DNA of 64,000 nucleotides, from NCBI GenBank assembly GCA_946408075.1, contig CAMJQQ010000001.1, positions 139,790 to 203,789 on the forward strand, written 5' to 3'. Below, piece after piece: positions 3,501 through 12,545 of the stretch (the stretch's first letter is position 1; every line of letters starts with the position of its first letter). The translations under genes and the position numbers were made by a program. The DNA is from an uncultured Candidatus Saccharibacteria bacterium (GTDB lineage Bacteria > Patescibacteriota > Saccharimonadia > Saccharimonadales > Saccharimonadaceae). Under the pieces are notes generated by a model, which saw only the letters and a list, made by a program, of their open reading frames with translations, made no database searches and had not been told where the DNA came from.

Positions 3501-5167
3501 AAAGTCGACGGCAGGCTCAGTTTCGTCGGTTCGGCGCCGCGCTCATCTTTACGCGTGATGCGATTGTAGCCGCTGCTGCCATAACCCATCGTGAGATATG
3601 GCGCACCAAAGGCCTGATAGCCGATAAACTCAAAACCTTCGCCGATATTAATTTCCTCCAGATATGGACCAAAATCCTCGAAATATTGTGGCGCGACGAT
3701 ATTTTTCGCACTCTGAATAATCGCCTCATCAATCGAGTTCTCGCTGCTAACCGAACTACGTTCTGGCGCGACATCATTTTCGTCATATGGCGCAACAAGA
3801 TTGAGCTTCTTGATGCTTGCCTCCGGATTCGGCGACAAATTATGTGCCGAAATATTGGCCGGGCCGTACGAAACGTAGCCACATCCGCCGCTAATCAGGA
3901 CAGAGAAAGGCATTGAAGAGTTCGACCAATCAGAATTAAAACCCTTTAGCGTCAGCGGATCGTAAGCGACCGTCACTTCTTCGAGTGGATTTGCCGCAAA
4001 AATCGCCGCGCTAACGTGCTTAATCGATTTTGGCAAATATATCTCCGTCAAATTGTTCTGCGCGAAGGCCATCATGTCGATAGAATCAATCTCTGCCAAG
4101 TCAATCGAATCAAGATGCGCATTGTAAAATGCAAGCGTTCCAATCTTGACATGTGTACCAGTGAAATCCAACGAGCCGAGATTCGTATTCGCAAAGGCTA
4201 AGTCCGTGATTTCTTCCAGTGCCGCGCCCATCGTCAGGCTCGTAATGCCGGAACCTTCGAAGGCGTACTGATCGATATGCTTGAGATTATTTGTATTTAG
4301 CGCCTGCGCCAACGCGGCCGTACCTCTAAAAGCGCCGCCATAAATCTTTTCTACGCCATCGCCGATCGTCAGACTTGTCAAACCCGCACAGCTACGACAA
4401 AAACCTTCTCCAACCTCGCTGGACTGAAAGATAATGCTTGTGACGTTTGTGTTTTCGAAGACCTGCCCACCGACGGTCTGGCTTGGCAAAATCGTAACTT
4501 CGCGATTCTGTGCATTGAGAGTAGCGTCCTTAAAGGCGCGCCAACCGAGATATTTAACCTTGTTTAGTCCATTAATCTTCAAACTGAGCCCCTCGAAAGC
4601 GCCCGCCTCGTACGAATAATCGTATCGGTAACCGTCACCGCAGCTACTCGCCGTGACGTTTTGATTGTCGGTAATTACGACGTCGTCGCCGAAACTCAAT
4701 TCGAGCTCGCCGCTATAAGAATCTAGGAGAGGTGCAAAGCTGCGAATTTGGAGCTTTGCTGCATTTGTCATGTCTATTTTTGCTAAACCATTAGGAATCG
4801 TGACCTCTGTTGGGTCGTCAAAGAGATTGTCGATAAAATATGTGTCGTAGTCGGCCAGTGACGGATCGCCAATTTTGCTGACTACCTCGCTGAATGACGG
4901 CACAACTAAGCTTGTCAGCCCAGCTGGCGCAGATTTAAAGCTAATTACTGGCGCCGTCGTCTCAATTAGCTCATTTTTGCCGCAGTAATCGTTCGGATTC
5001 GCCAAACGTGCACTCCGAATTGTTTTTACTTCGTATCCCCAGACGACACCATTGTCATCTGTAAAAGTGTTCGGCGATGCAGCATTCGCGCCTTGATAAA
5101 GTCCAAAGCACGCCAAAAAAGATGCCGCAAGAATGCCCAACTTCATTCTCTTGCTAAGCAAGTTCAT
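539..5167 (-). CDS. Giant surface protein with BspA-type leucine-rich repeats (1542 aa)
   Basis: Longest ORF in the window. It has an N-terminal signal peptide (MKLGILAASFLACFGLYQGANA) and many repeats of the pattern I..IG..AF....L..I.LP.SL..IG..AF (LRR_5/BspA style). The C-terminus is a TM helix plus an RRRKR tail. SD GGGAGAG lies upstream. Confidence 0.85.
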   Translation of the reverse strand: MNLLSKRMKLGILAASFLACFGLYQGANAASPNTFTDDNGVVWGYEVKTIRSARLANPNDYCGKNELIETTAPVISFKSAPAGLTSLVVPSFSEVVSKIGDPSLADYDTYFIDNLFDDPTEVTIPNGLAKIDMTNAAKLQIRSFAPLLDSYSGELELSFGDDVVITDNQNVTASSCGDGYRYDYSYEAGAFEGLSLKINGLNKVKYLGWRAFKDATLNAQNREVTILPSQTVGGQVFENTNVTSIIFQSSEVGEGFCRSCAGLTSLTIGDGVEKIYGGAFRGTAALAQALNTNNLKHIDQYAFEGSGITSLTMGAALEEITDLAFANTNLGSLDFTGTHVKIGTLAFYNAHLDSIDLAEIDSIDMMAFAQNNLTEIYLPKSIKHVSAAIFAANPLEEVTVAYDPLTLKGFNSDWSNSSMPFSVLISGGCGYVSYGPANISAHNLSPNPEASIKKLNLVAPYDENDVAPERSSVSSENSIDEAIIQSAKNIVAPQYFEDFGPYLEEINIGEGFEFIGYQAFGAPYLTMGYGSSGYNRITRKDERGAEPTKLSLPSTLKGIGANAFLWRLNSEDLDLENLPTNIEYIGSQAFIFNTGLEITHLNLPKLRYVGPSAFYGVKIKSLTINDSIERIEHGAFVGNYDLQNINIDTDIFGKKNGQAILGSRWNDIFLGNLYTYYGMSGPDVRDGLFKENNNCMKYRYHLKNLYFSSKSVTPPAGNWDLFRIYVDNFSADTTKWNKVPLGTFYGARIKNLKLPSTITEIGDYAFTSAEIENPISLPEGLKKIGNYAFWGTIVSDDTSSNHTPPEYPELDLDKKKVPLESLPSTVEEIGSYAFFAQKGFTGDLNLPNLKAIGRQAFYQSNVHNAVLPSTIEQLDEEVLLDTPNLNNVTIDVDLYDSSIAQYSIDYSHRTFVWSFGDGQHKLGTITFTENAGEPFGGFDTYGNAYTEASSVCGDPTDCGKDYAYFYGLEAAKVDLSATDWKTIAPSTFQTAKIDQIILPDELETIGEDAFYRADVGEVVLPDSLKTIGIEAFQEAQAEISEFPEGLLDIDESAFYAADITDDIVIPASVTHIGEDAFNAGPEDIEYNSVTLKPDLSFANTDNKLIHQLFWGSKINELIIESATLPALAANVGAGQQEFWNMSMNKVTITDLPGISYGAFENCRNLTRVDMSDDKAMRAIGTEAFLNAEKLRKIDWAPELKEEVVTIGQRAFKGTAFETMGDASKEFDLTAALFDGSEGYAFSGMPKLRTVDVPRTFTNATIPRATFYDDGELVEATIDYKITDMKNAAFANDDKLERIFIWGNTYVEDKNIGGYTMPTRAPDDTVGDEFGPTIPEGTDIYAYSVSPTEAYAGFDGRDDYEGVFYPLDEVIYLTSNKPRVQFTDDGEDFDKSDLIVYGMRRDGMILESDDWGEYDGVVYPSSSANLTFEKQASVMAARPAFGTIWDTPVPIDELDFGNENFAEIEFEFITDDESGDVHLVNIIYTDKYTRGLPDTDIDPYMPSEEPNYPIPFIPVTLDQILVSVGGLGVSSALLAFVVRRRKR

Positions 5168-5234
5168 GTTTGTATCTCTCCCAATTGGTTTTCTCTATCT
5201 CTATTTTAACACAAGCATTTTGCGCCGCGCTACA

Positions 5235-5263
5235 TTGACAAATAAGCATAACTGTGATATAAT
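5235..5263 (+). promoter_or_regulatory. Sigma70-type promoter (TTGACA - 17 bp - TGtgaTATAAT)
   Basis: TTGACA at 5235-5240, TATAAT at 5258-5263, 17-bp spacer. It lies upstream of the 5289 CDS, which has an AAGGGG SD. Confidence 0.6.
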
Positions 5264-5288
5264 AGTAAAATATTTAAAGGGGAATCAA

Positions 5289-5648
5289 ATGAAAAAGCTT
5301 GGCCTAGCATTAGGTGTCGGCCTAGTATTCTTGCTCGGTGTCGCCGCAAACAGCGTAAAACCAACCGAAAGTAATACGTCTATCAACAACGCAAAATCCG
5401 CTAATGACACTCCGACGACGGTTGAGGTGCCTAGGGTTCAAATCGTTCCGGCCGAACCAAAGCAAGAAAAAACTTGGAAATGTCATGACACGACCTCATA
5501 CAATCGCAATGATAACGACGACAACTACTGCGAAAGTAGTGATGGCGAAGGTAAATACGTTCCAGATTGGCAGGCTTGCCAGCTCGACCCGGATTACCAT
5601 CCAAGTCAACGCGGCGCCAGCTACTATAACAATAATTGCAATTACTAA
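5289..5648 (+). CDS. Small secreted Cys-containing protein (119 aa), unknown function
   Basis: Internal ATG of track ORF 5133..5648, preceded by an SD and a consensus promoter. It has a signal peptide (MKKLGLALGVGLVFLLGVAA) and 4 Cys in an Asn/Asp-rich C-terminal half. A hairpin plus T-run follows the stop codon. Confidence 0.6.
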   Translation: MKKLGLALGVGLVFLLGVAANSVKPTESNTSINNAKSANDTPTTVEVPRVQIVPAEPKQEKTWKCHDTTSYNRNDNDDNYCESSDGEGKYVPDWQACQLDPDYHPSQRGASYYNNNCNY

Positions 5649-5778
5649 AACTAAAGAGCCCTCCGCGGCTCTTTTTTGTTGCTTTTTCCGCAGCTTCGCA
5701 GCACGCCTTATCTTGCTCTTCGCACCCTCCCAAAAAACAACGCCCCGCGCCCCCGTATGTATTGTAATATTTACAACA

Positions 5779-5826
5779 TCGCTAGATATAGCGTAAAAAT
5801 CTGCATTGACACGCTATATATAGCGT
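5779..5826 (+). promoter_or_regulatory. Tandem NrdR-box-like palindromes overlapping a promoter
   Basis: Box 1 is TCGCTAGATATAGCGT (5779-5794). Box 2 is ACGCTATATATAGCGT (5811-5826), a perfect 16-bp palindrome. They match at 14/16 positions and their centres are 32 bp apart. Box 2 fills the spacer between TTGACA (5806-5811) and TATAAT (5828-5833). Confidence 0.6.
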
Positions 5827-5865
5827 TTATAATAAAAGCATAACCGCTATAAAACAAAGGGCAAC

Positions 5866-6300
5866 ATGAAAAACATTCTTTACTTTCAACCAAGCGACGC
5901 GACGAAATTTGACATTGAGCGATATGCGAAGTCGCTGAATCAATACGCAAAAATCTCGTCCGACGAAATCGAAAAGGCACTCAAACAGTTTGACTGCTTT
6001 GAGAATTTGCATGTCAGCCGCCTCGTGGAGTTAGGCGCTGCACTGATTGCGAAAAACGCCAATGAAGACAAAGCTAAAGAGTATTTTGAGTCGCACGACC
6101 AATACTTTGGTGGCAAATTTGAACGCCTTCGCCGCATCACGGGCTATCTAGTCGGCACGCTCGATCGCTGGAACGACGGCAAGAAAGCCGAGGAAAAGGC
6201 TCGCGTCAAACACTCCATCAACTCCGCCATTGACGACGCAGAACGCGCCGCCCGCCTTCAAGAGCAAGCTATCGCACATACGGTCGCCTACGCCGCCTAA
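5866..6300 (+). CDS. Stand-alone protein with a NrdD-type C-terminal glycyl-radical motif (144 aa)
   Basis: RRITGYLVGTLDRWNDGKKAEEKARVKH matches the C-terminal glycyl-radical signature of class III ribonucleotide reductase (R-[VI]-x-G-Y...W/F-N-x-G-K..E...R-V-x-H). There is no catalytic barrel and no Cys4 zinc site. The gene is preceded by NrdR-like boxes. Confidence 0.6.
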   Translation: MKNILYFQPSDATKFDIERYAKSLNQYAKISSDEIEKALKQFDCFENLHVSRLVELGAALIAKNANEDKAKEYFESHDQYFGGKFERLRRITGYLVGTLDRWNDGKKAEEKARVKHSINSAIDDAERAARLQEQAIAHTVAYAA

Positions 6301-6315
6301 AATCGCCCAACAAAA

Positions 6316-6335
6316 ATATGCCCCGCAGGGCATAT
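6316..6335. terminator. Bidirectional intrinsic terminator
   Basis: ATATGCCC-cgca-GGGCATAT is flanked by an A-run and a T-run. It sits between the convergent 5866..6300 (+) and 6339..8987 (-) genes. Confidence 0.7.
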
Positions 6336-6338
6336 TTT

Positions 6339-8987
6339 TTAATTCTCGACCACTACGCAAAGTGGCGTTAGCTGACGAGCCTGACCGAGTGGATTATCGG
6401 CAAACTTCGAAGCGAGCAATTCAGTCTCCTCTTCGCACGCTTTACCTAAGATGTTGCGACCAAGGTCATTCGAATCGATAATTACAACGCCTTCGAAATT
6501 GTCGCGCATCTTCTTCGGCAACTTGTCGCACTGCTCAATGAGCGAACGCAAATGCTCGGCGACTACGTCTGGATCCTTTGGTGGCAGCTTCGCGGAGACG
6601 TTTGCTGGATAGGCGGAGTATGAGGTCGGCCCATCGATTGCGCGCACATCTGCGCCAGCGGTATTATAGAAAACGCCCTTCTTACCAACTAGTTTCCCGG
6701 CGAAACCGGCCGCAGCAGCAAACCAAATGCGCGGTGCGCCGGCTTCTTGTATCGCCAACTGCATCGTAGCTGGATGACCAAGACCGATACCGGCCGGCGT
6801 CCTAATGACGAAGCGGCTCAAAATCTTTGCTGAAAGGCTCGGCTTCACATCCCAGATGAAGTATGAGCGACCCTGCATTGTAGCAATAATCTTCTCGCTG
6901 ATATAGAGCTGCCACTTCTTGCCATCGGCCTTCTTTGGCATATTCTTCGAGAACGCCACCAAATAATGCTCAATGAAGCTATCCATATCCGTATCGCGAC
7001 TCACGAGTTCAGTGCGCATTGGGTAGCGCGTGTAAACCTTGTGATTTACCTCGGAAGTAATGTCGGCATTTTTCTCGTTGTTCGGACCGTAGCCGAGCTC
7101 TTCTGGTTTTACGGTCTCTTTCTCGTCCTTCTTGTCGAAGAATTCGCGCAGCCACAACTCGACGTTAATAATGCGCCAGAAAGTCATCGAGCCAAAGCTG
7201 CTCTTATCTTTCTCGTTGAGCTTAAATTCGCGCAAGACCGCCATCTGGTCAAAGTATTTGCGATGTGCAAACTCATCAGAAACCAAAATCTTTTCCAAAT
7301 CCTTGTGAATCGAGCGGAACCAGTCAATCTGTGGCGTTGTAAAGCCAATTTTGTTACGACGCGCGCGAATCTTTTCCGGTAACAGGCCCTTCATACTGTC
7401 GCGCAAAATGCGTTTGTTCCAACCCTCGTGAATAATTGAATCGTCGTCGTAAGCGAACTGGAACTTCAAAAGCTCCTTGTCGATGAATGGCACGCGACCT
7501 TCAAGACCGAAATGCATCGTGTTGCGATCTTCGTAGCGGAGCAGGGAAGGCAAGCTTTGTTCAAAAATATCGTCAAGCAAGCGCATCTTGAGGTTATTGT
7601 ATTTAACCTTCATCTTTTCGTCGCCGTACTTGTTCGCAAACTCAGGATTCAAAAGCTCATTAATCGGTTTCGGCTTCTTCTGATTAATGCGACCGCGAAT
7701 TAGCTTGCGCATAATATCCATCGATTTAGACGTCTCGGCAGCCAAGCGCTTGTACTGCTTGCGAGATTTCAACTGATTTAGATAAACGCGATAGTATGGG
7801 TCGTAACCAGCCATCATCTCATCGGCACCCTGGCCATCAAGCAAAACAGTAATATACTTGCTAGCTTCGCGCATTACGGCGTACTGCGCATATGGGCCAG
7901 TACTGATTACCGGCTCTTCCTGTGTACGGACGAAGTCGGTCAAATCCTCAAGGAAACTCTGCGTTGTCGGTTTAATCTTGTGCGCCTTAATTTTGCCATG
8001 ATACTTATCAATCAAAGCGTCGACGTAAGCCTCTTCATCGTTACTCTCATTTGGGAACACGGCAGAGAAAGTATTCTGGCGCGAGCCAACCGTACTCATT
8101 TCTGCGCTATGCTTCTCGTCTTCGAGGTTCTTTGCAATCAATGCGGCAACCGAAGAGGAATCAAGGCCACCAGAAAGGGAAGTACCAACCGGAACTTCGC
8201 CTACGAGGCGCATACGCACGGCCTTATCGAGGCGCTTGCGGTATTCCTTGGCGACATCTTCGCTGTATTCCTTAGGATTCTTGGCCAATTCTTCCAGCTC
8301 TTGGCGCAACTTCGTAAACATCTTGCGCTTGGCACCCTTCTTCGAAATTGTCATCATTTCGCCAGGCATCAAGTGATAAATATTCGTAAAGAAAGTCTCG
8401 CGCTCATCGTCTTGGACGCGGAACTTCAAATAGCGGAAAATAATGCGATCGTTCGGCTCGGTCTTAACCTTGTCGGAGGCGAGCAAGGTTTTAATCTCGG
8501 ACGCGAACAACAATTTGCCGTCTTCTTGGTAGTAATAAACTGGTTTAATACCAAAATGATCGCGCGCTAAAGTAACTTCGCCATTCTTGCGGTCCAAAAT
8601 CGCCAAACCAAACATACCGTTCATCTTGTCGAAAGCTTTGTAGCCCCAATGAATGAAGGCTTCGAGCACGACCTCGGTGTCGGATTCAGTCTTAAACTTG
8701 AGTTTTGGGTTCTCGGCGAGCAGCTCCTCGCGCAATTCTTTATAGTTATAAACTTCGCCATTGTAGACGATTTCGTAGTTGCTGTCGTTGGCGGACTTCA
8801 TTGGCTGTGCGCCAGAAGCGATATCGATAATTGCCAGGCGACGATGAGCGAGGCCGACTTTTACTCCGTTCTTATCAAAAACAACTTTACCCTCACCATT
8901 CGGGCCGCGATGCGCCATGGCATCATTCATCTTATCTAGAATTTTCTCTGCGTCATCATAGCCGAAACAACCAGCAATTCCGCACAT
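6339..8987 (-). CDS. Asparagine-synthetase-family glutamine amidotransferase fused to a C-terminal CofE/F420-0:gamma-glutamyl-ligase-like domain (882 aa)
   Basis: The N-terminus MCGIAG supplies the Ntn Cys2 nucleophile, and the PP-loop SLSGGLDSS is present. The AsnB-like body ends near aa 615 (WRIINVELWLREFF). The C-terminal ~245 aa shows CofE-like blocks: YISEKIIATMQGR, LPPKDPDVVAEHLRSLIEQ, GVVIIDSNDLGR and ADNPLGQARQLTPLCVVV. SD GGAGGA and a TGATATAAT promoter lie upstream. Confidence 0.65.
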   Translation of the reverse strand: MCGIAGCFGYDDAEKILDKMNDAMAHRGPNGEGKVVFDKNGVKVGLAHRRLAIIDIASGAQPMKSANDSNYEIVYNGEVYNYKELREELLAENPKLKFKTESDTEVVLEAFIHWGYKAFDKMNGMFGLAILDRKNGEVTLARDHFGIKPVYYYQEDGKLLFASEIKTLLASDKVKTEPNDRIIFRYLKFRVQDDERETFFTNIYHLMPGEMMTISKKGAKRKMFTKLRQELEELAKNPKEYSEDVAKEYRKRLDKAVRMRLVGEVPVGTSLSGGLDSSSVAALIAKNLEDEKHSAEMSTVGSRQNTFSAVFPNESNDEEAYVDALIDKYHGKIKAHKIKPTTQSFLEDLTDFVRTQEEPVISTGPYAQYAVMREASKYITVLLDGQGADEMMAGYDPYYRVYLNQLKSRKQYKRLAAETSKSMDIMRKLIRGRINQKKPKPINELLNPEFANKYGDEKMKVKYNNLKMRLLDDIFEQSLPSLLRYEDRNTMHFGLEGRVPFIDKELLKFQFAYDDDSIIHEGWNKRILRDSMKGLLPEKIRARRNKIGFTTPQIDWFRSIHKDLEKILVSDEFAHRKYFDQMAVLREFKLNEKDKSSFGSMTFWRIINVELWLREFFDKKDEKETVKPEELGYGPNNEKNADITSEVNHKVYTRYPMRTELVSRDTDMDSFIEHYLVAFSKNMPKKADGKKWQLYISEKIIATMQGRSYFIWDVKPSLSAKILSRFVIRTPAGIGLGHPATMQLAIQEAGAPRIWFAAAAGFAGKLVGKKGVFYNTAGADVRAIDGPTSYSAYPANVSAKLPPKDPDVVAEHLRSLIEQCDKLPKKMRDNFEGVVIIDSNDLGRNILGKACEEETELLASKFADNPLGQARQLTPLCVVVEN

Positions 8988-9124
8988 ATTTCCTCCGATT
9001 TTTCTTTGATTATATCATATCTTAAGCTATTCGACGGGGCTGACTGCAAGTCATTAACGCTCATGCTTGTCCGGATTCCCGAACAGTGCCAAAATATAGA
9101 AATAATAATAAAAGGAAGCATCAG

Positions 9125-10084
9125 ATGGGTATTTTGTTGCAATTTGCATTATTGATTATTGGTTTCGTCTTGCTCATTAAGGGTGCTGACTTTTTTGTGG
9201 ATGGCTCATCGAGTACAGCACAGAACTTTCGTGTGCCGAAACTGTTAATTGGCTTGACGATTGTTGCCTTTGGTACGAGCGCTCCAGAGCTCGCGGTTAG
9301 CATTAAGGCTCTCTCTAGCGCTAATTCGGATATTGTTCTCGGCAACGTCATTGGTAGCAACATTACGAATATTTTGCTAATTCTCGGCATTGCGGCTGTA
9401 ATTTTTCCTGTGCGTGTTCGCCGTCGCACTGTGCGTAAAGAGTTACCATTCTGTCTATTGCTGTCGATTTTACTTGTTGTTTTGATGCTTGACCGTGCGC
9501 TCGCTGGCATGTCTGAGAATTCAATTTCTCGCGCCGATGGCATCGTGATGCTCCTATTCTTCGCGGTTTTTGCCTACTATCTCGTTCGTTCTGCCTTGCG
9601 CCATCGTACGGACGACGAAGAAGAACCCGAGCATAGTCTGCTAATTTCGCTTGTAATGATAGCTTCTGGTTTGGCGGGCGTAATCATCGGTAGCAATCTC
9701 GCCGTCGATGCAGCCATTTCTATCGCGGAAGTGCTCGGTGTGAGTGAGCGTGTCATTTCTCTGACAATCATTGCTTTCGGTACCTCTTTGCCGGAACTTG
9801 TCACGACGATTGTTGCTGCACGCAAGCACGAACAAGATTTGTTGGTTGGCAATATTGTTGGCAGCAACATCTTTAATATCGCCGTCGTTCTCGGCGTTCC
9901 GACTGTTATCTTTGGTGACGCAAATGTCGGCAGCTTCTCGTCGCTTGATCTCTTTGCTTTCATTGCCTCGGCAGTTGTTCTCTTCGGCTTTTCTCTCCGC
10001 GGTCGCAAAATCACGCGCGCCAACGGTGTCGCTATGCTTGCGATTTATGTCTTATACTACGGTGGTGTAGTCTTATTATCTTGA
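9125..10084 (+). CDS. Ca2+/Na+ antiporter, CaCA (YrbG) family
   Basis: Two alpha-repeats are present: GNVIGSNITNILLILG and GNIVGSNIFNIAVVLG. The protein is polytopic. I chose the ATG at 9125 because an AGGAAG SD precedes it; the track ORF starts at 9086. Confidence 0.8.
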   Translation: MGILLQFALLIIGFVLLIKGADFFVDGSSSTAQNFRVPKLLIGLTIVAFGTSAPELAVSIKALSSANSDIVLGNVIGSNITNILLILGIAAVIFPVRVRRRTVRKELPFCLLLSILLVVLMLDRALAGMSENSISRADGIVMLLFFAVFAYYLVRSALRHRTDDEEEPEHSLLISLVMIASGLAGVIIGSNLAVDAAISIAEVLGVSERVISLTIIAFGTSLPELVTTIVAARKHEQDLLVGNIVGSNIFNIAVVLGVPTVIFGDANVGSFSSLDLFAFIASAVVLFGFSLRGRKITRANGVAMLAIYVLYYGGVVLLS

Positions 10085-10643: not shown

Positions 10644-11852
10644 ATGATAAAGAAACTGCTCGCCGTTCTCGGAATTGCTGTCATTACTTTTGGTATTATA
10701 GCGACGGTTTCGCATTTCTCGAACCAGGATAACTCGACCGATACCGAAGGCGCGCTGGCCGAAGCCGAGCCGACTCCAATTAAAACCGACCCCATCAAAG
10801 AACAGATGGAGGCTATGACGCTCGATGAAAAAGTCGCCCAAATGCTCATCGTCAACAAAAATGACCTCGTCGTTTCTGAAGAAGAGCAGGCCAAGCTAAA
10901 AACCGTGCCCTACGGCGGCTATATTTTAATGGAAAACGCCTATGGTACGCTTGCACAGACGCGCCTAATGGTCGAGACGCTCCAGCTAAACGCCAAAACA
11001 CCGCTCATTATTGCGACCGATCAAGAGGGCGGCGTCGTGCAGCGCATCAAGAATATTAGTTATCCGCGCGCAAGTAATATCCCAAATATGTACTCCGTCG
11101 GCCAGACGGGAAATCTGGATTATGCCACGACTGTTGGTCGCGTGCTAGCGGAAGAGCTGCGCACGGTTGGCGTTAATGTAGACTTTGCGCCGGTCGCAGA
11201 TATCTATTCGAATCCAAACAATACCGTCATTGGTCGCCGCAGCTTTTCTGCGAATCCTCAAACCGCCGCCGAAATGTCTCAGGCGCTTGCGGCTGGCCTC
11301 GAGCAAAACGGCGTCATTGCGACCTATAAACATTTCCCAGGGCACGGCAATACTTCGACCGATTCGCACAAAAGCTTGCCAATCATCAATCGCTCACGCG
11401 AACAACTCGACGAAACCGAACTCGTCCCATTTAAAAACGCCATCGCAAATGGCGCAAAGCTGATCATGGTTGGTCACATCGCCCTCCCGCAAATCACTGG
11501 CGATAATACTCCAGCCACGCTTTCATCAAAAATCACTACCGACCTCCTGCGCACCGAGCTCGGCTATAAAGGTCTCATTGTGACGGACGGCCTCAATATG
11601 GGTGCTCTCACAAATAACTATTCCGACGCCGACATCTATAAGCTCGCAGTCGAGGCTGGCGCCGACCTACTAGTCCTCCCGCGCGATCCGCAGCTTGCCA
11701 TCGAAACTATCAAGGCAAACATTCCAGAATCTCGCATCAATGAATCGGTCTATCGCATCCTCAAGTTCAAACAAGATTACCTCGCCAACTACCAATACCT
11801 CGACGCCTCCTATCTTGGCAGTGCTGAGCATTCCGCCGCTCTCGCTCACTAA
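10644..11852 (+). CDS. Glycoside hydrolase family 3, NagZ-like beta-N-acetylhexosaminidase, membrane-anchored
   Basis: Contains TDQEGGVVQR and KHFPGHG motifs plus an N-terminal TM/signal anchor. Confidence 0.8.
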   Translation: MIKKLLAVLGIAVITFGIIATVSHFSNQDNSTDTEGALAEAEPTPIKTDPIKEQMEAMTLDEKVAQMLIVNKNDLVVSEEEQAKLKTVPYGGYILMENAYGTLAQTRLMVETLQLNAKTPLIIATDQEGGVVQRIKNISYPRASNIPNMYSVGQTGNLDYATTVGRVLAEELRTVGVNVDFAPVADIYSNPNNTVIGRRSFSANPQTAAEMSQALAAGLEQNGVIATYKHFPGHGNTSTDSHKSLPIINRSREQLDETELVPFKNAIANGAKLIMVGHIALPQITGDNTPATLSSKITTDLLRTELGYKGLIVTDGLNMGALTNNYSDADIYKLAVEAGADLLVLPRDPQLAIETIKANIPESRINESVYRILKFKQDYLANYQYLDASYLGSAEHSAALAH

Positions 11853-11870: not shown

Positions 11871-12545
11871 ATGAAATTATTGCTTCACACTTGTTGCGCG
11901 CCGTGCAGCGTCTATTGCATTAAAACTCTCCGCGCCGAAGGAATCGAGCCAACTCTCTACTGGTTCAATCCGAACATTCATCCCTATGCCGAGTACAAGG
12001 CCCGCCGCGATTGCCTCCGCGAGTACGCAAAGCTAATCAATATTGCACTCGTCGAAGATGATGCCTATGGACTGGACGAGTTCGTCTGTAATGTCGCCGA
12101 TAAGCTCACGACCCGCTGCCAAGATTACTGCTACCCAAAGCGCCTCCGCCAGGCCTTCGAATATGCCAAGCAGAACGGTTACGACGCTATTTCGACCACG
12201 CTCCTCTATAGCATCTACCAGAAGCACGATTTCATCGCGAAGCTTATGCAGATGCTTGCCGAAGAATACGGCATCGAGTTTGTCTATCGCGATTTTCGCG
12301 AGGGCTGGCAGGAAGGGCAAGACGAAGCGCGCCGCATTGGCCTCTATATGCAAAAATATTGCGGCTGCGTCTTTTCCGAAGAAGAATCCGGCCTCGGTCG
12401 TGAAGTTGGCCGCAAGCTCAAAAAGCAGGGCATTTCTCCAACCAACGCCAACGTTCGCCAGTTGATCGAGTCGAACAAGGTCGACGGCCTAGTCGTTCCG
12501 AGCAAGCTCTCCGACGCCGCTACCGAGCCGCTCGACATTGACTAA
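11871..12545 (+). CDS. queH: Epoxyqueuosine reductase QueH (DUF208)
   Basis: LLLHTCCAPCS and YMQKYCGCVFSEEE are hallmark Cys motifs. The protein carries a ~50-aa C-terminal extension. TGTTATAAT lies 7 nt upstream of the ATG. Confidence 0.85.
   Translation: MKLLLHTCCAPCSVYCIKTLRAEGIEPTLYWFNPNIHPYAEYKARRDCLREYAKLINIALVEDDAYGLDEFVCNVADKLTTRCQDYCYPKRLRQAFEYAKQNGYDAISTTLLYSIYQKHDFIAKLMQMLAEEYGIEFVYRDFREGWQEGQDEARRIGLYMQKYCGCVFSEEESGLGREVGRKLKKQGISPTNANVRQLIESNKVDGLVVPSKLSDAATEPLDID

Follow-up and report, generated by a model that had tools for sequence, protein, structure and literature searches.

The MurT/GatD complex amidates the α-carboxyl of D-iso-glutamate on lipid II (PMC3266927, PMC6085368). 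This amidation is needed for efficient cross-linking of the peptidoglycan; pneumococci and mycobacteria cannot live without it, and drug development is aimed at it (PMC6085368, PMC10484409). MurT has a Mur-ligase fold with a DUF1727 domain, and GatD belongs to the class-I (triad) glutaminases. The AsnB-type peptidoglycan amidotransferases (Lactococcus lactis AsnH, the AsnB proteins of Bacillus subtilis and Listeria, Lactobacillus plantarum AsnB1 and Corynebacterium glutamicum LtsA) are named asparagine synthases, yet they act on carboxylates of the cell wall. They consist of an N-terminal nucleophile (Ntn) glutaminase domain and a PP-loop synthetase domain and are about 620 amino acids long. 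AsnH amidates the D-Asp bridge after the action of the AslA ligase and the RacD racemase (PMC7476776), and the AsnB proteins of B. subtilis and Listeria amidate meso-diaminopimelate (PMC5485061, PMC8554201). The gene described here lies on the minus strand at positions 6339-8987 of a 64,000-nucleotide stretch (the window) of the genome of an uncultured Candidatus Saccharibacteria bacterium (assembly GCA_946408075.1, contig CAMJQQ010000001.1). Its product has the same two domains, followed by a domain that resembles CofE, the F420-0:γ-glutamyl ligase, which is found in none of the AsnB-type peptidoglycan amidotransferases.

Judged from its sequence, the fused protein appears to be a variant of two known kinds of enzyme, the AsnB-type amidotransferases of the cell wall and the ligases of the CofE type, and its role may be new and important. 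The comparative evidence places it at a step of peptidoglycan precursor synthesis that would make MurT/GatD unnecessary or incompatible. We give about an even chance to the reading that the protein modifies carboxylates of the peptidoglycan stem peptide on the cytoplasmic precursor and thereby stands in for MurT/GatD. The sequence-only reading of the same DNA had guessed at a carboxylate modifier of the envelope, for example of the stem peptide; the peptidoglycan-gene neighbourhoods and the mutual exclusion with MurT described below point the same way, and the addition of glutamate followed by amidation, one of the two orders that it named, would be only one possibility. The two systems share the logic of a glutaminase joined with a carboxylate-activating ligase and a similar cell-wall gene context. 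They are not homologous, as the fused protein combines an Ntn glutaminase of class II with an adenylating synthetase and a domain of the CofE fold, and their putative equivalence is drawn from their distribution only. A literature search found no description of an AsnB-CofE fusion, in agreement with the sequence-only reading, although such proteins are common in the databases under the name 'asparagine synthase'.

The characterised members of the CofE superfamily are nucleoside triphosphate- and metal-dependent ligases, which are thought to form an acyl phosphate on a carboxylate and then to join it to an amine. The residues of CofE that contact F420 are F92 and R234 (PMC10861534); neither has a confidently aligned counterpart in the domain described here. 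The family also includes a validated substitute for folylpolyglutamate synthase, FolC2 (CT611) of Chlamydia, which acts on a substrate other than F420 in a reduced genome devoid of cof genes (PMC1971073).

The CofE-like domain

The F420_ligase family PF01996 matches the whole protein at residues 694-819, the region where the sequence-only reading had expected it, but with 16.6 bits (E 0.0056) the match stays below the cut-off of 25 bits. TIGR01916 (CofE) does not match the window protein. An exhaustive HMMER search of a protein database with the 255-residue C-terminal piece gave 600 relatives, of which 81 lie at E <= 1e-30. Relatives at E 1e-37 or better, among them stand-alone proteins of about 235 residues, themselves exceed the PF01996 cut-off (83 bits for P0178 and 55 bits for P0165). 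A profile built from 29 sequences of the domain matches CofE of Archaeoglobus fulgidus (2PHN, 2G9I, 7ULD) with an E value of 3.4e-5. It aligns SEKxxAxxQGR with STVISKAEGR, PPKDPD with PPLDPD and IIDSND with IITDTN, the same blocks on which the sequence-only reading had based its alignment. The match needed a profile; a single-sequence phmmer search of the domain against the PDB gave nothing meaningful.

The AlphaFold model of the domain has a predicted local distance difference test score (pLDDT) of 92.5 and a predicted template-modelling score (pTM) of 0.89. In a Foldseek search of the PDB with this model, the chains of CofE (2PHN, 2G9I, 7ULD) are the only significant matches (E 6e-8, probability 1.00, TM score 0.52), the next match having an E value of 0.2. 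An unrelated fold of the C-terminal region, named by the sequence-only reading as a way in which it could be wrong, is therefore not what is found. The relatives, through transitive homology, the profile and the predicted fold agree well beyond chance in assigning the domain to the CofE superfamily. As the relatives at E 1e-37 pass the PF01996 cut-off while the window protein does not, this membership holds without equivalog status, and the domain is a distinct clade of the superfamily and not a CofE equivalog.

Across 32 diverse fused proteins the domain keeps several motifs without variation, namely S697-E-K, Q705/R707, D785-G-P-T, D838-S-N-D and D864-N-P..Q869..T874-P; the only exception is a single row that is gapped in the alignment at D838-D841. 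With FbiB's N-terminal domain and with CofE (2PHN, 7ULD) the domain shares the fold, the two blocks with the metal-binding Asp residues and the PP(K/L)DPD block. In a profile-profile alignment with canonical FbiB N-domains from carrier genomes, which places residues by alignment and not by structure, D785 (IDGP) falls on the Asp of GVD.SN and D838 (IIDSND) on the Asp of D-T in ITDTN. We take the counterparts of D785 and D838 to be the two metal ligands of CofE in the description of 2PHN. The C-terminal motif DNPLGQ..(E/Q)xTP differs from CofE, and the acyl-phosphate ligase chemistry of CofE is only presumably shared.

The weak PF01996 match and the CofE fold might suggest an ordinary, merely fused F420-0:γ-glutamyl ligase. 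The genome of the window organism (1.08 Mb in 16 contigs, 100% complete) has no match to CofD (PF01933), and the fused gene is its only PF01996-like locus. The sequence-only reading had supposed an organism without the F420 pathway from the window alone and had counted a complete pathway against itself; the whole genome bears out the supposition. Of the five actinobacterial carriers tested, three (Humibacillus, a Brachybacterium and Knoellia) possess a separate canonical FbiB/CofE (111-145 bits) besides the fused gene, so that carriers which make F420 have their own ligase. In the other two, the Helcobacillus and Schaalia carriers, no canonical FbiB/CofE was found. Together with the score below the Pfam cut-off and the missing TIGR01916 match, these genome contents indicate that the fused protein does not make F420, and the F420 ligase reading is effectively refuted.

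The precedent of chlamydial FolC2 raises another possibility, that of a γ-glutamyl ligase for folate or another cofactor, with the AsnB half modifying the tail. The window's genome has a serine hydroxymethyltransferase and no FolC above the cut-off, and some stand-alone relatives of the domain show faint matches to TIGR04132. The window protein itself has no TIGR04132 match, however, all five actinobacterial carriers tested keep a canonical FolC, and folate genes adjoin none of the loci examined. Eleven of eleven other genomes of the window's family lack the fused gene, although their folate needs are presumably equal. The attached amidotransferase also has no counterpart in FolC2, and we know of no amidated folate tails. 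As such an enzyme would also leave the exclusion of MurT unexplained, we consider it very unlikely.

The AsnB half and its pairing with the CofE-like domain

Every sequence criterion makes the protein a true AsnB-family member. The GATase_7 family (PF13537) matches residues 48-170 (E 1e-43, 148 bits against a cut-off of 25), and the Asn_synthase family (PF00733) matches with 220 bits against a cut-off of 21, as the sequence-only reading, which saw a complete AsnB-family enzyme here, had foreseen. The asn_synth_AEB model TIGR01536 gives 411 bits against a cut-off of 267. Both hallmarks of the family, the Cys nucleophile directly after the initial Met and the PP-loop SGGxDS, are intact. The best relative of the AsnB half in the PDB is a hydroxyamidotransferase (7YLZ, E 6e-48, residues 1-395), followed by Escherichia coli AsnB (1CT9, 2e-37). 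The former is an AsnB-like enzyme of the TsnB9 type that amidates a carboxylate other than that of aspartate; the similarity is at the level of the family only, and the TsnB9-type enzyme belongs to secondary metabolism and has no CofE-like domain.

The domain is contained in 1090 database proteins (485-1544 residues), nearly all with AsnB domains in front of it and named 'asparagine synthase'. At the genome level, the 80 best matches in a collection of species-representative genomes were examined as loci. All of them have the fused frame, either open for at least 805 residues or cut by a contig end. The carriers among these best 80 loci are Patescibacteria (Candidatus Saccharibacteria and others labelled Nomurabacteria and Woesebacteria), Dermabacteraceae (Brachybacterium, Helcobacillus, Dermabacter), Actinomycetaceae (Schaalia, Gleimia), Intrasporangiaceae/Dermatophilaceae (Terrabacter, Humibacillus, Intrasporangium, Knoellia, Ornithinibacter and others), Dermacoccaceae (Flexivirga, Yimella, Leekyejoonella and others) and one metagenome-assembled genome (MAG) of the Coriobacteriales. 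In one family of Patescibacteria a fused gene (L144) and a split pair (L145) share their flanking genes and are syntenic. These loci dispose of the objection, raised by the sequence-only reading against itself, that a frameshift or a mis-assembly had joined two genes.

In a sample of 401 Patescibacteria genomes, the CofE-like clade is present in 30 and AsnB in 89. The arrangement is fused in two of the 30 (the window's genome and G188), consists of adjacent genes, AsnB followed by the CofE-like gene, in five (G083, G107, G149, G277, G385), and has AsnB elsewhere in the genome in four (G121, G286, G314, G380), whereas 19 have no AsnB at all. The seven genomes with fused or adjacent genes belong to four families (the window's own, f39, f60 and f94). 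In a tree of the AsnB domain, all AsnB proteins partnered with the CofE-like domain (the fused ones, the five split ones and the unlinked one of G121) form one clade with a support of 100, which stands apart from the plain AsnB proteins of Patescibacteria and Actinomycetes; the tree contains no named LtsA or AsnH sequence. The partnered proteins also score lower against PF00733, 170-230 bits as compared with about 300-390 bits for the plain ones. The tree thus shows a dedicated AsnB subfamily that accompanies the CofE-like partner and, together with the fused and adjacent arrangements, makes the two halves a functional pair. The split forms are basal in the AsnB-domain tree, where the fused forms make up a single clade (98), and the tree of the C-terminal domain has a fused clade (98) with the split L142 as its sister. 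As both trees give one fused clade with split forms at its base or as its sister, they indicate that an adjacent gene pair fused once. Two unpublished genomes, G428 and G434, are part of an AsnB tally (44/121), and their loci were excluded from the trees.

The two halves of the fused protein differ in their constraint. Among 32 fused representatives, Cys2 is kept in 26 and replaced in six, and the PP-loop is intact in 28 and degenerate in four. Since the motifs of the CofE-like domain are invariant while Cys2 or the PP-loop is lost in some fused proteins, the CofE-like half is the core and most constrained part, and the AsnB half is an accessory that has decayed in some lineages, where it appears to be turning into a pseudo-enzyme. 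Both halves are intact in the window protein. Fused proteins that have lost Cys2, the PP-loop or both and retain all of the CofE-like motifs are P0058, P0142, P0147, P0172, P0047, P0125 and P0129; the fused proteins of Dermabacter (about 800 residues) no longer give any PF00733 score. In the Coriobacteriales MAG (L016), a plain AsnB of 625 residues (4236-6113) lies in tandem directly upstream of the fused gene of 878 residues (6126-8762); this AsnB groups with the plain actinobacterial ones, outside of the partnered clade.

The high TIGR01536 score, the intact Cys2 and PP-loop and the database name would all fit a genuine asparagine synthetase that makes free asparagine and bears at its C-terminus an appendage without catalytic function, serving in regulation, oligomerisation or the sensing of a ligand. 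Moreover, the window's genome has no PF00733 gene other than the fused one, and the same is true of all five actinobacterial carriers tested. Against this stand the invariance of the CofE-like motifs in proteins that have lost Cys2 or the PP-loop, the existence of the C-terminal domain without any AsnB in most Patescibacteria carriers, the separate and divergent clade of the partnered AsnB proteins and the non-aspartate substrate of the closest solved relative. The gene is also missing from all eleven other genomes of the window's family. In the window's genome no asparaginyl-tRNA synthetase scores above the cut-off (the matches are class-II synthetases of 590 and 507 residues), and GatB is present, so that Asn-tRNA is made by transamidation with GatCAB and free asparagine is not required for it. 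The fused protein is therefore unlikely to supply asparagine for translation, and we regard the asparagine synthetase reading as a whole as unlikely.

The CofE-like domain is also found fused to other partners. In a Patescibacteria genome (G343) it is joined to adenylate kinase (L143:6989-8401), as it is in P0223, and the L143 fusion occupies the usual place of adk, after a SecY-sized gene among small open reading frames (ORFs) of the size of ribosomal proteins. Further fusions are with an M20 peptidase (P0184), PlsY (P0185), HD_4 (P0195) and GNAT (P0169). Bacillota have stand-alone homologues too (P0143, P0200 and others).

Mutual exclusion with MurT and transfer between phyla

The survey scored MurT only, by matches to MurT_C (PF08353) in the genomes. 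In the Patescibacteria sample none of the 30 carriers of the CofE-like clade has MurT_C, as compared with 112 of the 371 other genomes (Fisher p 6e-5). In a sample of 301 Actinomycetes genomes the figures are 0 of 11 carriers and 140 of 290 others (Fisher p 0.001). The base rates of MurT in the two samples are 28% and 47%, respectively. MurT_C is likewise missing from all five named fused carriers, and 38 of forty further named fused carriers have no match. The remaining two, a Terracoccus sp. (L025) and Terrabacter sp. Ter38 (L028), have an ORF of 417 residues that scores 23-25 bits, whereas most real MurT_C matches score about 60-130 bits; this ORF may encode a divergent Mur-ligase-like protein. 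Except for these two borderline scores, MurT and the CofE-like clade occur together in none of the 85 carriers. Unpublished genomes contribute to the tallies (G436 and G667 to the 140/301, G159 to the 112/401), and their removal changes nothing material. That no more than 140 of the 301 Actinomycetes genomes, an even sample, have MurT_C contrasts with the statement that the murT-gatD operon is universal in Actinobacteria (PMC6085368).

The exclusion is also visible between close relatives. The window's genome has no MurT_C match, and tblastn searches with the MurT and GatD proteins of its relatives found no remnant of murT or gatD in it. Nine of the eleven other sampled genomes of its family have murT-gatD and no fusion, the reverse of the window's genome. 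In family f39, one genome (G035) has MurT and another (G277) has the split pair. Family f60 has three genomes with MurT and three, all of genus g90, with the split pair. A replacement of murT-gatD in situ was considered and rejected, as none of the neighbours of the relatives' murT-gatD map into the window. One such neighbour, a gene of about 800 residues, maps to C1:107766-110141, about 30 kb from the window, and nothing like murT, gatD or the fusion is found beside it.

The trees indicate that the fused gene is horizontally mobile between Patescibacteria and Actinomycetota, the phylum to which the known hosts of Saccharibacteria belong. In the AsnB-domain tree the actinobacterial fused genes appear in at least three places among the Patescibacteria ones, and their grouping into one clade is rejected by an approximately unbiased (AU) test (p 9e-51). 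The group of the window gene (with L007, L008 and L009) is the sister of Dermabacteraceae with a support of 100. The AU tests were run after the tree had been inspected, and the inference of transfer uses the longer alignment of the AsnB domain. On the C-domain tree, monophyly of the Patescibacteria fused forms is not rejected (p 0.08), and a direction of transfer from that tree alone was dropped. As the basal positions are held by Patescibacteria, the trees suggest that the fusion originated there.

Gene neighbourhoods

Several of the stand-alone homologues in Patescibacteria lie next to genes of the cell envelope. One of them (L138) overlaps murJ, and another (L131) is located directly upstream of mraZ, mraW, an ftsL-like gene and a penicillin-binding protein gene. 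Others follow an L,D-transpeptidase gene (L134) or the gene for a VanW/PG_binding_4 protein (L132), adjoin genes for M23-LysM peptidases (L133, L137), overlap a Wzy_C gene with a flippase gene adjacent (L130), or precede DUF4012 and GT4 genes (L127). A weaker group of homologues in four Actinomycetes genomes (L153-156) is convergent with murJ. A strong stand-alone group, L149-152, from the Actinomycetes genomes G510, G595, G692 and G677, is found downstream of a sigma-70-family gene (412-470 residues), overlapping its end by 4 nucleotides. These genes face genes for a 'sugar-transfer associated ATP-grasp' protein and an alanine-racemase-like protein, followed by parE/parC-like genes, and the pair of racemase and ligase resembles the RacD/AslA cross-bridge machinery. 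Around the fused genes of Intrasporangiaceae, genes for PspC, GT4, LPG_synthase_TM, GuaA and NUDIX proteins are found, which have no more than a loose connection with the envelope.

In five Patescibacteria loci (L009, L018, L021, L027, L051) and in Schaalia (L017) the fused gene is followed by a gene for a ClpB/ClpC-type AAA+ ATPase. An ORF of about 130 residues usually precedes the ATPase gene, and a VIT1-family gene follows it; Schaalia has Clp ATPase genes on both sides. The ATPase and VIT1 were considered as functional partners, and their presence was judged to be housekeeping synteny.

It might be argued that the product is a small soluble amide, either a γ-glutamyl compound or a peptide, that serves for instance as compatible solute or signalling molecule. 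It would then be analogous to N-acetylglutaminylglutamine amide (NAGGN), which is synthesised by the peptide ligase Ngg and the AsnB-type amidotransferase AsnO. In favour of this, the gene is an accessory one with horizontal mobility, the NAGGN amidotransferase model TIGR03104 (AsnO) gives 327 bits with the AsnB half, and the fusions of the CofE-like domain with GNAT and an M20 peptidase are reminiscent of the NAGGN trio, in which AsnO has a GNAT-ligase and a peptidase as partners. The score is far below the cut-off of 570, however, no Ngg/peptidase trio is found among the neighbours, and no conserved transporter or peptidase partner stands beside the fused gene. Synthesis of a soluble compound would predict neither the peptidoglycan-gene neighbourhoods nor the exclusion of MurT, and we consider it rather unlikely.

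Proposed function

By combining these observations it is possible to outline how the fused protein might act on the stem peptide in place of MurT/GatD. The substrates would be the free stem-peptide carboxylates of UDP-MurNAc-peptide or lipid II. The CofE-like domain, as the core activity, would activate a carboxylate of the stem peptide, most plausibly the α-carboxyl of D-iso-glutamate on which MurT acts, and couple it with either ammonia or an amino acid. A carboxylate-activating ligase is proposed by analogy with CofE and with MurT, which likewise forms an acyl phosphate. The AsnB module might then amidate a second carboxylate, that of the newly added residue, of the diamino acid or of a bridge residue. 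The substrate, the carboxylate assigned to each domain, the nucleophile and the nucleotide are all inferred.

Several points weigh against this function. Its putative assignment to the whole clade derives from comparison, and the use of a nucleotide and the ligase chemistry of the CofE-like domain are assumptions. Lys45 of CofE, which contacts GTP and lies in the STVISK block, aligns with a Thr (ATMQGR), and another, invariant Lys (SEK) is found three residues upstream of this position. A helical insert of about 40 residues (GIGLG.P.TMQLAI.E.G) further separates the domain from CofE, in addition to the low PF01996 and TM scores. The AsnB and CofE-like activities are separable, since AsnB is missing altogether from 19 of the 30 Patescibacteria carriers, and what the AsnB half contributes is uncertain. 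Clustering of the ORFs around the best 80 loci found no conserved operon partner of the fused gene, only synteny within families; the neighbourhood argument applies to about half of the stand-alone loci and comes without a control of random genes. The fusion partners adenylate kinase, PlsY, HD, GNAT and M20 peptidase give no uniform cell-wall signal. The co-occurrence tests take no account of shared ancestry, and the absence of MurT in Actinomycetes may partly be a trait of the few orders to which the carriers belong. Finally, both systems are missing from two genomes of the window's family; neither can therefore be obligatory, and the exclusion is not a strict either/or.

A wider proposal, to which we give less than an even chance, extends the replacement of MurT/GatD to the whole clade. 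The CofE-like proteins, alone or paired or fused with AsnB, would be a non-homologous alternative to MurT/GatD that neutralises the α-carboxyl of D-iso-glutamate, either by its amidation or through an added and then amidated amino acid, and the fused gene would have moved repeatedly between Saccharibacteria/Patescibacteria and Actinomycetota. If this were true, it would explain how the charge of the stem peptide is handled in those Actinomycetota and Patescibacteria that lack MurT, and a function could be assigned to over 1000 proteins that now bear the wrong name 'asparagine synthase', as well as to hundreds labelled 'F420 ligase' in organisms without F420. The CofE superfamily would gain a third class of substrate, and there would be a concrete case of exchange of a cell-wall gene between Saccharibacteria, which live as episymbionts, and the phylum that includes their hosts. 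With an added amino acid, the clade might also provide the missing enzymes for the Gly, Gly-amide and D-Ala-amide substituents of the classical actinobacterial peptidoglycan chemotypes, and possibly for the B-type bridges. The hypothesis is directly testable because culturable carriers exist: Brachybacterium, Dermabacter, Helcobacillus and Schaalia.

Chemotaxonomy had also led to the idea of a ligase and amidase for a D-Glu cross-bridge of the A4 type. This candidate was weakened, as the peptidoglycan types found among the carriers are A3gamma (Intrasporangium), A4alpha (Dermacoccaceae) and A5alpha (Gleimia) (PMC6113628).

Gene structure and surroundings

The fused gene is a single ORF of 882 uninterrupted codons, and the Lys/Glu-rich linker and the coordinates that the sequence-only reading had given agree with its translation. 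The features of the gene are collected in the table.

Features of the fused gene and its upstream region (positions in the window)
Feature	Positions	Strand	Basis
Whole gene, AsnB-type amidotransferase with CofE-like ligase domain, 882 residues	6339..8987	-	Single open frame; stop codon 6339-6341
Ntn (class-II) glutaminase domain, residues 1-~205, nucleophile Cys2 (MCGIAG)	8373..8987	-	PF13537
AsnB-type synthetase (ATP pyrophosphatase) domain, residues 249-614	7146..8243	-	PF00733, E 8e-65
PP-loop SLSGGLDSS, residues 270-278	8154..8180	-	Direct reading of the translation
Lys/Glu-rich inter-domain linker, residues ~615 to ~632-640	7092..7145	-	Translation; lowest model confidence at 622-625
C-terminal CofE-superfamily domain, residues 633-882	6342..7091	-	Fold match, profile match, motif invariance
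Promoter-like element of the extended -10 type, TGATATAAT, upstream of the gene	9009..9017	-	By-eye assignment from the sequence
Shine-Dalgarno sequence GGAGGA	8991..8996	-	Sequence reading; spacing to the ATG at 8987 is 3 bases (AAT)

The AlphaFold model of the full-length protein has a pLDDT of 89.3 and a pTM of 0.76, and the pLDDT falls below 50 only in the linker at 622-625 and in a loop at 731-733. The promoter-like element is not listed by a simple scan for promoters of two hexamers. On the start side the gene is flanked by a divergent gene for a Na/Ca exchanger (9086-10084) and on the stop side by a small convergent gene for an NrdD tail (5866-6300); because of these orientations the fused gene looks monocistronic. 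A GH3 (NagZ-like) glycosidase gene (10644-11852), which has no conserved link to the fusion at other loci, and a QueH gene (11871-12545) are located about 2-3 kb from the fused gene, and the GH3 enzyme might have a role in the recycling of peptidoglycan.

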